DNA of 7,227 nt from IMG/VR virus record IMGVR_UViG_2681813318_000010, one strand, 5' to 3'. The notes below the pieces were generated by a model, which saw nothing but the letters and a program-made list of their open reading frames with translations, searched no databases and was not told the DNA's origin. The DNA is from a virus (Duplodnaviria > Heunggongvirae > Uroviricota > Caudoviricetes). Below, piece by piece: positions 6,884-7,227 of this stretch. Position numbers and translations under genes: made by a program. Every line of letters starts with the position of its first letter. Positions within the stretch are counted from its first letter, which is position 1.

Positions 6884-6945
6884 CGGTCTCGAAAACCGGA
6901 GTAGGGGCAACTCTACCGGGGGTTCAAATCCCCCTCTCTCCGCCA
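6884..6945 (+). tRNA. serU: Partial tRNA-Ser(CGA) gene, 3' ~62 nt only (anticodon arm to CCA end); not a functional tRNA, most likely the prophage attachment-site core repeat
   Basis: cggtctcgaaaaccggagtaggggcaactctaccgggggttcaaatccccctctctccgcca: anticodon stem-loop with CGA anticodon, long variable arm, T-arm gggggttcaaatccccc, acceptor 3' strand plus CCA. Matches the 3' part of E. coli serU from memory. Upstream sequence does not form the D-arm or 5' acceptor strand. Confidence 0.7.
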
Positions 6946-7227
6946 CTTTATCAATGACTTATCTCCCGACTTCCCGCCTTGCTTTTCCTAAACAGAACAA
7001 TCGTAGAATATTCTTGAAGGGTTAGATCGTCACTGTTTTCTGTTCGATACTGTGACATTCAGCACTTGATTCCTATGGATCTGACAGGAAGCTTTCGAGC
7101 GAAAATGTGCAGTTATTCAGTCGTTTTCTGTAAGCGACTCGTCAGAACCGTATTGATATTTACTGAGAGCTCAGATCAACTTTCCAGGGCAACAGATCGC
7201 GTACCCGGTTTGCCGGCCAGTCCTGGA

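Follow-up and report, generated by a model that had tools for sequence, protein, structure and literature searches.

A partial serU tRNA-Ser(CGA) at the probable right attachment junction of an effector-carrying lambda-like prophage

INTRODUCTION

What does a tRNA gene without its 5' part represent when it lies close to the end of a stretch of viral DNA, and does it mark the place at which a prophage gives way to the host chromosome? The question is raised by a segment of tRNA-Ser(CGA) in a 7,227-nt stretch of Caudoviricetes DNA (IMG/VR record IMGVR_UViG_2681813318_000010), the whole of which is referred to here as the window. Tyrosine integrases that act at tRNA genes use an attP that carries the 3' part of the tRNA, so that integration rebuilds the whole gene at one prophage end and leaves only a 3' fragment at the opposite one; P22 at thrW and P4 at leuX are examples. 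Williams (2002, NAR) has reportedly classified tRNA-gene integration by these enzymes. The original prediction for this locus, made from the letters of the window, took the segment to be the displaced copy left by a tRNA-targeting integrase. Our analysis indicates that positions 6884 to 6945 very probably form the att repeat with which a lambda-like prophage, integrated in the serU tRNA-Ser(CGA) gene, ends on its right side (attR).

RESULTS

The 62 nt at 6884-6945 on the plus strand (CGGTCTCGAAAACCGGAGTAGGGGCAACTCTACCGGGGGTTCAAATCCCCCTCTCTCCGCCA) match nt 29 to 90 of the 90-nt K-12 serU gene at 62 of 62 aligned positions. They include four of the five anticodon-stem pairs (the first base is missing), the anticodon loop with CGA, the long variable arm, the T arm, the 3' acceptor strand and CCA, and the 28 nt that make up the 5' acceptor strand and D arm of serU are missing from the window. 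Upstream of the fragment, the bases (...TTCGGTATCAT) share one isolated A with serU, and no GGAGAGA partner for TCTCTCC was found in the 28 nt before 6884. Given that these upstream bases are unlike serU, an acceptor stem and D arm cannot form here, and the complete cloverleaf of a functional tRNA gene, with its paired acceptor stem and D arm, was absent at 6884-6945. ARAGORN reported no tRNA in the whole window. A permissive Rfam scan returned partial matches at the T-arm region, all below the family gathering score, to the 3' end of tmRNA and, on the opposite strand, to a plastid 3'UTR family; these are regarded as echoes of the tRNA fragment. Among the 5,422 matching complete E. coli genomes, the alignment starts exactly at 6884 in most, and it does so in every serU-gene match among the matches listed. 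The predicted limits of the segment, 6884 and 6945, were therefore exact, its predicted extent from anticodon arm to CCA was borne out, and the search for an intact tRNA-Ser with more 5' context came up empty.

We considered that the detectors could have overlooked a tRNA-Ser gene that is entire though atypical, or a tRNA encoded by the phage, given that the 3' part is perfect, anticodon and CCA included, and that lambdoid prophages elsewhere do carry tRNA genes. The blank ARAGORN result, an Rfam match no larger than a T arm, the upstream 28 nt with neither serU likeness nor an acceptor partner, and the recurrence of 6884 as the limit of homology all speak against this reading, which we find hardly credible. 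The fragment is inert as a tRNA and amounts to a scar. As a tRNA 3' segment that lacks its 5' part and is identical to the host gene, it has the form of an attR repeat.

On the chromosomal side, positions 6946-7129 (plus strand) are the serU-yodB intergenic spacer. This sequence equals the K-12 sequence downstream of serU apart from a single lost G (1-bp deletion) between 7071 and 7072, and in relatives it runs on to yodB. The host flank is colinear with the prophage-free genome over 6946-7129, and an insertion sequence (IS) interrupts it past 7129. In the proposed comparison of 6946-7227 with the serU flank of a prophage-free genome, 6946-7129 agreed and 7130-7227 did not, and the true chromosomal flank within the window is 6946-7129 only. 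The window stops inside the IS, with yodB and the left end of this prophage outside it. It had also been stated that no long open reading frame lies past 6945, which is correct; a 69-aa frame at 6816-7025 merely spans the tRNA fragment. With phage DNA on the left and K-12 spacer on the right, the fragment very probably marks a prophage end, as had been claimed.

The interruption belongs to an IS66-family (ISCro1-like) element, of which the terminal 98 bp occupy 7130-7227 on the minus strand. K-12 homology ends at 7130, where GTAAGCGACTCGTCAGAACC... starts; the IS terminal sequence begins GTAAGCG, and the end as a whole begins GTAAGCGACTCG. Positions 7130-7227 are 100% identical to the ISCro1-family ends in E. 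coli O103:H2 strains 12009 and 129 and 99% identical to that in FDAARGOS_1059. A minus-strand reading frame near 7163 had been suggested to be the 3' end of a flanking chromosomal gene. The frame exists (...QDWPANRVRDLLPWKVDLSSQ, with its stop codon at 7160-7162), but its last 21 codons plus stop, at 7160-7225 on the minus strand, are residue for residue the C terminus of the annotated ISCro1-family transposase coding sequence in FDAARGOS_1059, and the supposed chromosomal gene is therefore an insertion sequence in the spacer. The full-length FDAARGOS_1059 transposase has the Pfam DDE_Tnp_IS66, zf-IS66 and IS66 C-terminal domains. The element accordingly combines the terminal inverted repeat from GTAAGCG with a DDE_Tnp_IS66-type transposase, the latter seen in its full-length homologue, as in the IS66 family.

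The 8-bp target duplication expected of the window IS is CGTTTTCT; a similar ISCro1 copy in FDAARGOS_1059 is flanked by the 8-bp duplication ACATTCAG. Beyond the IS of about 2.7 kb, the spacer would resume with the duplicated CGTTTTCT, followed by TATCGCTCACC... (CGTTTTCTTATCGC...) and yodB. The exact spacer/IS junction at 7130 was not found among 5,426 complete E. coli genomes. The IS of FDAARGOS_1059 sits 68 bp closer to the tRNA than that of the window, and the IS of O103:H2 strain 129 sits 2 bp from the window site in the opposite orientation. Three different IS66-family (ISCro1-type) insertions, in three strains and in both orientations, were seen inside a stretch of about 70 bp in the serU-yodB spacer (the sites compared were 7130 of the window, 9363/9364 of extracted locus L001 and 4430-7130 of L008). 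The spacer may be an insertion hot spot for this family.

On the other side of the repeat lies phage DNA, comprising lambdoid tail fibre genes and a type III effector cassette. The cassette spans 3012-6169 on the plus strand and consists of nleB2 (3012-3992), a truncated nleC (nleC'; 4026-4316), a frameshifted nleH (4710-5545) and nleF (5600-6169), with names taken from the RefSeq annotation of loci 98-99% identical to these open reading frames. Lying after the tail fibre gene (1251-2564) and before the att repeat, it has the position of the "exchangeable effector loci" described at the att-proximal end of lambdoid prophages (PMC8112680). The cassette had been placed immediately inside the tRNA fragment, which agrees with the end of nleF at 6169.

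Several further features of this region were noted. The window has a second, incomplete copy of the tail-fibre N-terminal-domain gene (1-856 compared with 1305-2160), which makes a tandem unit of 1304 bp; over 856 bp the copies share 96% identity, and the first of them meets a stop at 906 and then a frameshift. This gene is single-copy in relatives, and the additional copy could reflect either a true duplication or the way the sequence was assembled. A sub-threshold match to the Rfam IS009 family at 4235-4445 on the plus strand (score, 58 bits; gathering threshold, 117; E value, 1.6e-11) overlaps the truncated nleC and a tail-fibre-assembly remnant. Upstream of both nleB2 (2871-2915) and nleH (4564-4608) there is a directly repeated 45-nt sequence (87% identity), which the effector genes may have in common as an upstream element. 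A ykgJ remnant (6585-6682, minus strand), 99 bp from the 5' end of the gene and 93% identical to K-12, lies between nleF and the phage-derived arm described below. A secondary attachment site derived from ykgJ/ecpE ("attB-in-PP_2") has been described at the effector end of other prophages (PMC8112680). We could not establish a link between that site and the remnant, in which the 99 bp of ykgJ are homologous and the intergenic part is unrecognisable.

The phage-derived arm (P arm) of the junction extends from about 6761 to 6883 on the plus strand. It is about 91% conserved beside the serU fragment in serU prophages with other cargo, such as those of ST131 and the LT-IIb prophage; in the O157:H7 tccP/espJ prophage its proximal part alone is kept, and it was not found in prophage-free K-12. 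Two stretches within the arm are candidate arm-type sites for the integrase. The first, GCTTGGAATATTCT at 6771-6784 on the plus strand, is invariant in three otherwise diverged P arms, and the second, inverted at 6834-6844 (ATTTATTCCAA on the plus strand), is likewise invariant across diverged P arms. The second site contains an exact 9-mer, CTTGGAATA, which is read on the minus strand at 6836-6844 and occurs twice in the 7.2-kb window against an expectation of 0.09, both times in the P arm. The other junction of strain RM14723 has two exact copies of CTTGGAATA and one near-copy (CTTGGAATT) in the interval from CCA to the integrase gene. The CTTGGAATA motifs, which are enriched as well as conserved on each arm, are putative integrase binding sites of the arm type, judging from their sequence and position. 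A promoter and terminator scan of 6440-7227 found none.

We then turned to relatives that share this right end, examining the left end in RM14723 (a dog isolate), O145:H28 RM12581 and O103:H2 12009. RM14723 and RM12581 each have one lambdoid prophage of 48-50 kb starting from the same right junction; at its far end, the 3' end of a tyrosine integrase gene (Pfam Phage_integrase) abuts a complete 90-nt tRNA-Ser, beyond which mtfA and asnT lie as they do in K-12. In 12009, the intact serU with its integrase lies 153 kb from the fragment, behind three tandem lambdoid prophages, and the distance from fragment to left end can therefore be large. The matching repeat in a complete tRNA beside an integrase at the opposite end, as the original prediction expected, was seen in all three strains. 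Of 5,426 complete E. coli genomes, 1,143 have the integrase-serU-mtfA junction at a coverage of at least 80%, which makes serU a heavily used site; among the matches listed, the features at this junction are always integrase, tRNA-Ser and mtfA. The integrases of RM14723, RM12581 and 12009 are annotated as frameshifted at the extreme C terminus, with the catalytic region reading through. Given this annotation in the three relatives, the serU junction may be a fossil at which excision no longer takes place.

The array in 12009 has features of its own. The integrase nearest the fragment there is of a different, serT-associated type. The tandem-prophage junctions (loci L005, 3960-4140, and L014, about 45105) contain a 3' fragment of the serT tRNA-Ser(UGA) in the opposite orientation, with CTTGGTATA repeats on both sides, and the adjoining integrase is 56% identical to the serU type. 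Site-specific integration at the serU core was rejected as the origin of these fragments because the opposite orientation and the arm repeats on both sides are attP-like. The array suggests recombination with serT-type phages.

Two positions in the variable-arm stem distinguish the two copies of the tRNA sequence and bear on the crossover point. At the equivalents of 6903 and 6914, RM12581 and 12009 have G and C in the complete copy, which lies beside int, and A and T, like K-12 and the window, in the partial copy beside the spacer. The G and C form a compensatory pair in the stem, and phage sequence directly follows CCA of the complete copy; the complete serU in these lysogens thus has a phage-supplied compensatory change from A-T to G-C. 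RM14723 has G and C in both copies and is uninformative, and the allele argument rests on two of the three lysogens (RM12581 and 12009). The complete chimeric serU was located at 1551-1640 of locus L007, 2176-2265 of L010 and 15931-16020 of L015. The split of alleles between the copies indicates that the complete gene consists of the host 5' half and the phage 3' part, that the partial copy is the host 3' part, and that the crossover fell within 6884-6902 (plus strand), the anticodon stem-loop CGGTCTCGAAAACCGGAGT; the exact cleavage positions would lie in this interval. In O157, identity between phage and host begins one base later, at 6885. The claim that the partial copy is the one displaced by a tRNA-targeting integrase is supported by its host allele (A/T), set against G/C beside int.

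The same results bear on the idea that serU was truncated by an IS-mediated or other deletion and that phage DNA lies next to it by coincidence. IS66-family elements are active in the spacer, to judge from the three insertions in three strains, but the IS of the window lies 184 bp downstream of the truncation point and not at it. Furthermore, the breakpoint recurs within 1 bp in serU prophages with different cargo, with a conserved arm before it, and the missing 5' half is found at the other end, joined to a phage-type 3' part beside the integrase. We assign a negligible probability to a deletion of this kind.

A different concern is that the junction could be a fossil attR inside a mobile phage genome, with P arm, scar and host flank captured by aberrant excision, and thus not a present boundary. 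The b region of ev099 and of mEp332, two lambda-type phages that use lambda's own int and attP, contains the P arm and the 62-nt serU fragment together with some 285 bp of serU-yodB spacer, and the spacer of the window is cut by the IS at 184 bp. Given that ev099 and mEp332 carry these elements internally, the motif alone is no proof of a live prophage boundary. However, the P arm and effector cassette of the window are 98-100% identical to loci in which the spacer continues to yodB, zinT and msrQP, two loci of that set also have ISCro1 in the spacer, and ev099 reaches only about 92% identity in its P arm. This near-identity to loci with yodB following makes the chromosomal reading much more likely for the window, and we consider a captured fossil very unlikely. 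The serU attR of ev099 (locus L016, 2500-2960) and mEp332 (L017) lies beside transposase genes and the gene of an AraC-type regulator and looks like a relic of an old aberrant excision.

DISCUSSION

An attR of a lambda-like prophage in serU, the reading we prefer, very probably arose as follows. The phage attP carried its own copy of the 62 nt at the 3' end of the tRNA, and a tyrosine integrase carried out the strand exchange between attP and the chromosomal gene at a point of the anticodon stem-loop that falls within 6884-6902. The host 5' half and the phage-supplied 3' part now form a complete, presumably functional tRNA beside int and mtfA at the far end, and the original 3' part of the host gene moved to the right end, with the phage P arm before it and the native serU-yodB spacer after it. 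In a later step, the IS66-family ISCro1-like element entered the spacer 184 bp downstream, at 7130. The scar would serve as an excision substrate only if int and xis still work. By analogy with the three relatives, the contig from which the window comes probably has int and the full serU at its left end.

The structure is a correct recognition of a known and ordinary arrangement that is already well documented, and the attR junction advances no open question. It is a textbook case of tRNA-gene integration, in which the working serU of the lysogen is a host/phage chimera and the host 3' part is left as the scar. Its value is in annotation: the right boundary of the effector-carrying prophage is placed at 6884-6902, the chromosome begins at 6946, and the apparent flanking gene is reassigned to an insertion sequence. 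We think it improbable that the spacer is a preferred IS66-family target or that the scar and flank are an internalised mobile "fossil attR" as in ev099 and mEp332. If the spacer were such a preferred target, insertions might lock in or remodel the effector prophage.

Compared with the general model of tRNA-gene integration, the junction shows no essential difference, and its repeat, which runs from the anticodon stem, fits the class in which crossover occurs in the anticodon loop. The likeness to the IS66 family (ISCro1) extends over the GTAAGCG terminus and the transposase C terminus, which are the same here; the window takes in 98 bp of the element, and a full target duplication, tnpA and tnpB would lie beyond it. 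The O157:H7 serU prophage with tccP and espJ (strain Z1626), which we take to be Sp14/CP-933U, has the same att repeat beside yodB and effectors just inside attR, and its arm keeps the CTTGGAATATTC and TTATTCCAA motifs as in the window. It differs in that the arm is 87% identical over the proximal part only, serU identity starts from 6885 and the effectors are others.

Escherichia phage SerU-LTIIb (GenBank KU052038) represents another lambdoid prophage end, in which the depositors marked these 62 nt as a pseudogene of tRNA-Ser, with the spacer and yodB after it, and its P arm and fragment are about 93% identical to those of the window. In the stretch of KU052038 that was viewed, side tail fibre genes take the place of the nle effectors, and the spacer has no IS. 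A close likeness is also seen to the serU prophages of Shiga toxin-producing E. coli O145:H28 (NZ_CP007136) and O103:H2 (NC_013353), whose right end is 98-100% identical to the window. Differences from these are the ISCro1-like element at 7130 and the extra partial tail-fibre copy at the left edge, a combination seen in no genome among the matches listed. Common to both are the tail fibre genes, nleB2, nleC', nleH, nleF, the ykgJ remnant, the P arm, the 62-nt fragment and the spacer, and serU has been described in O145:H28 as a prophage integration locus, with nleF and nleH-1 among the effectors of that prophage (PMC7067040).
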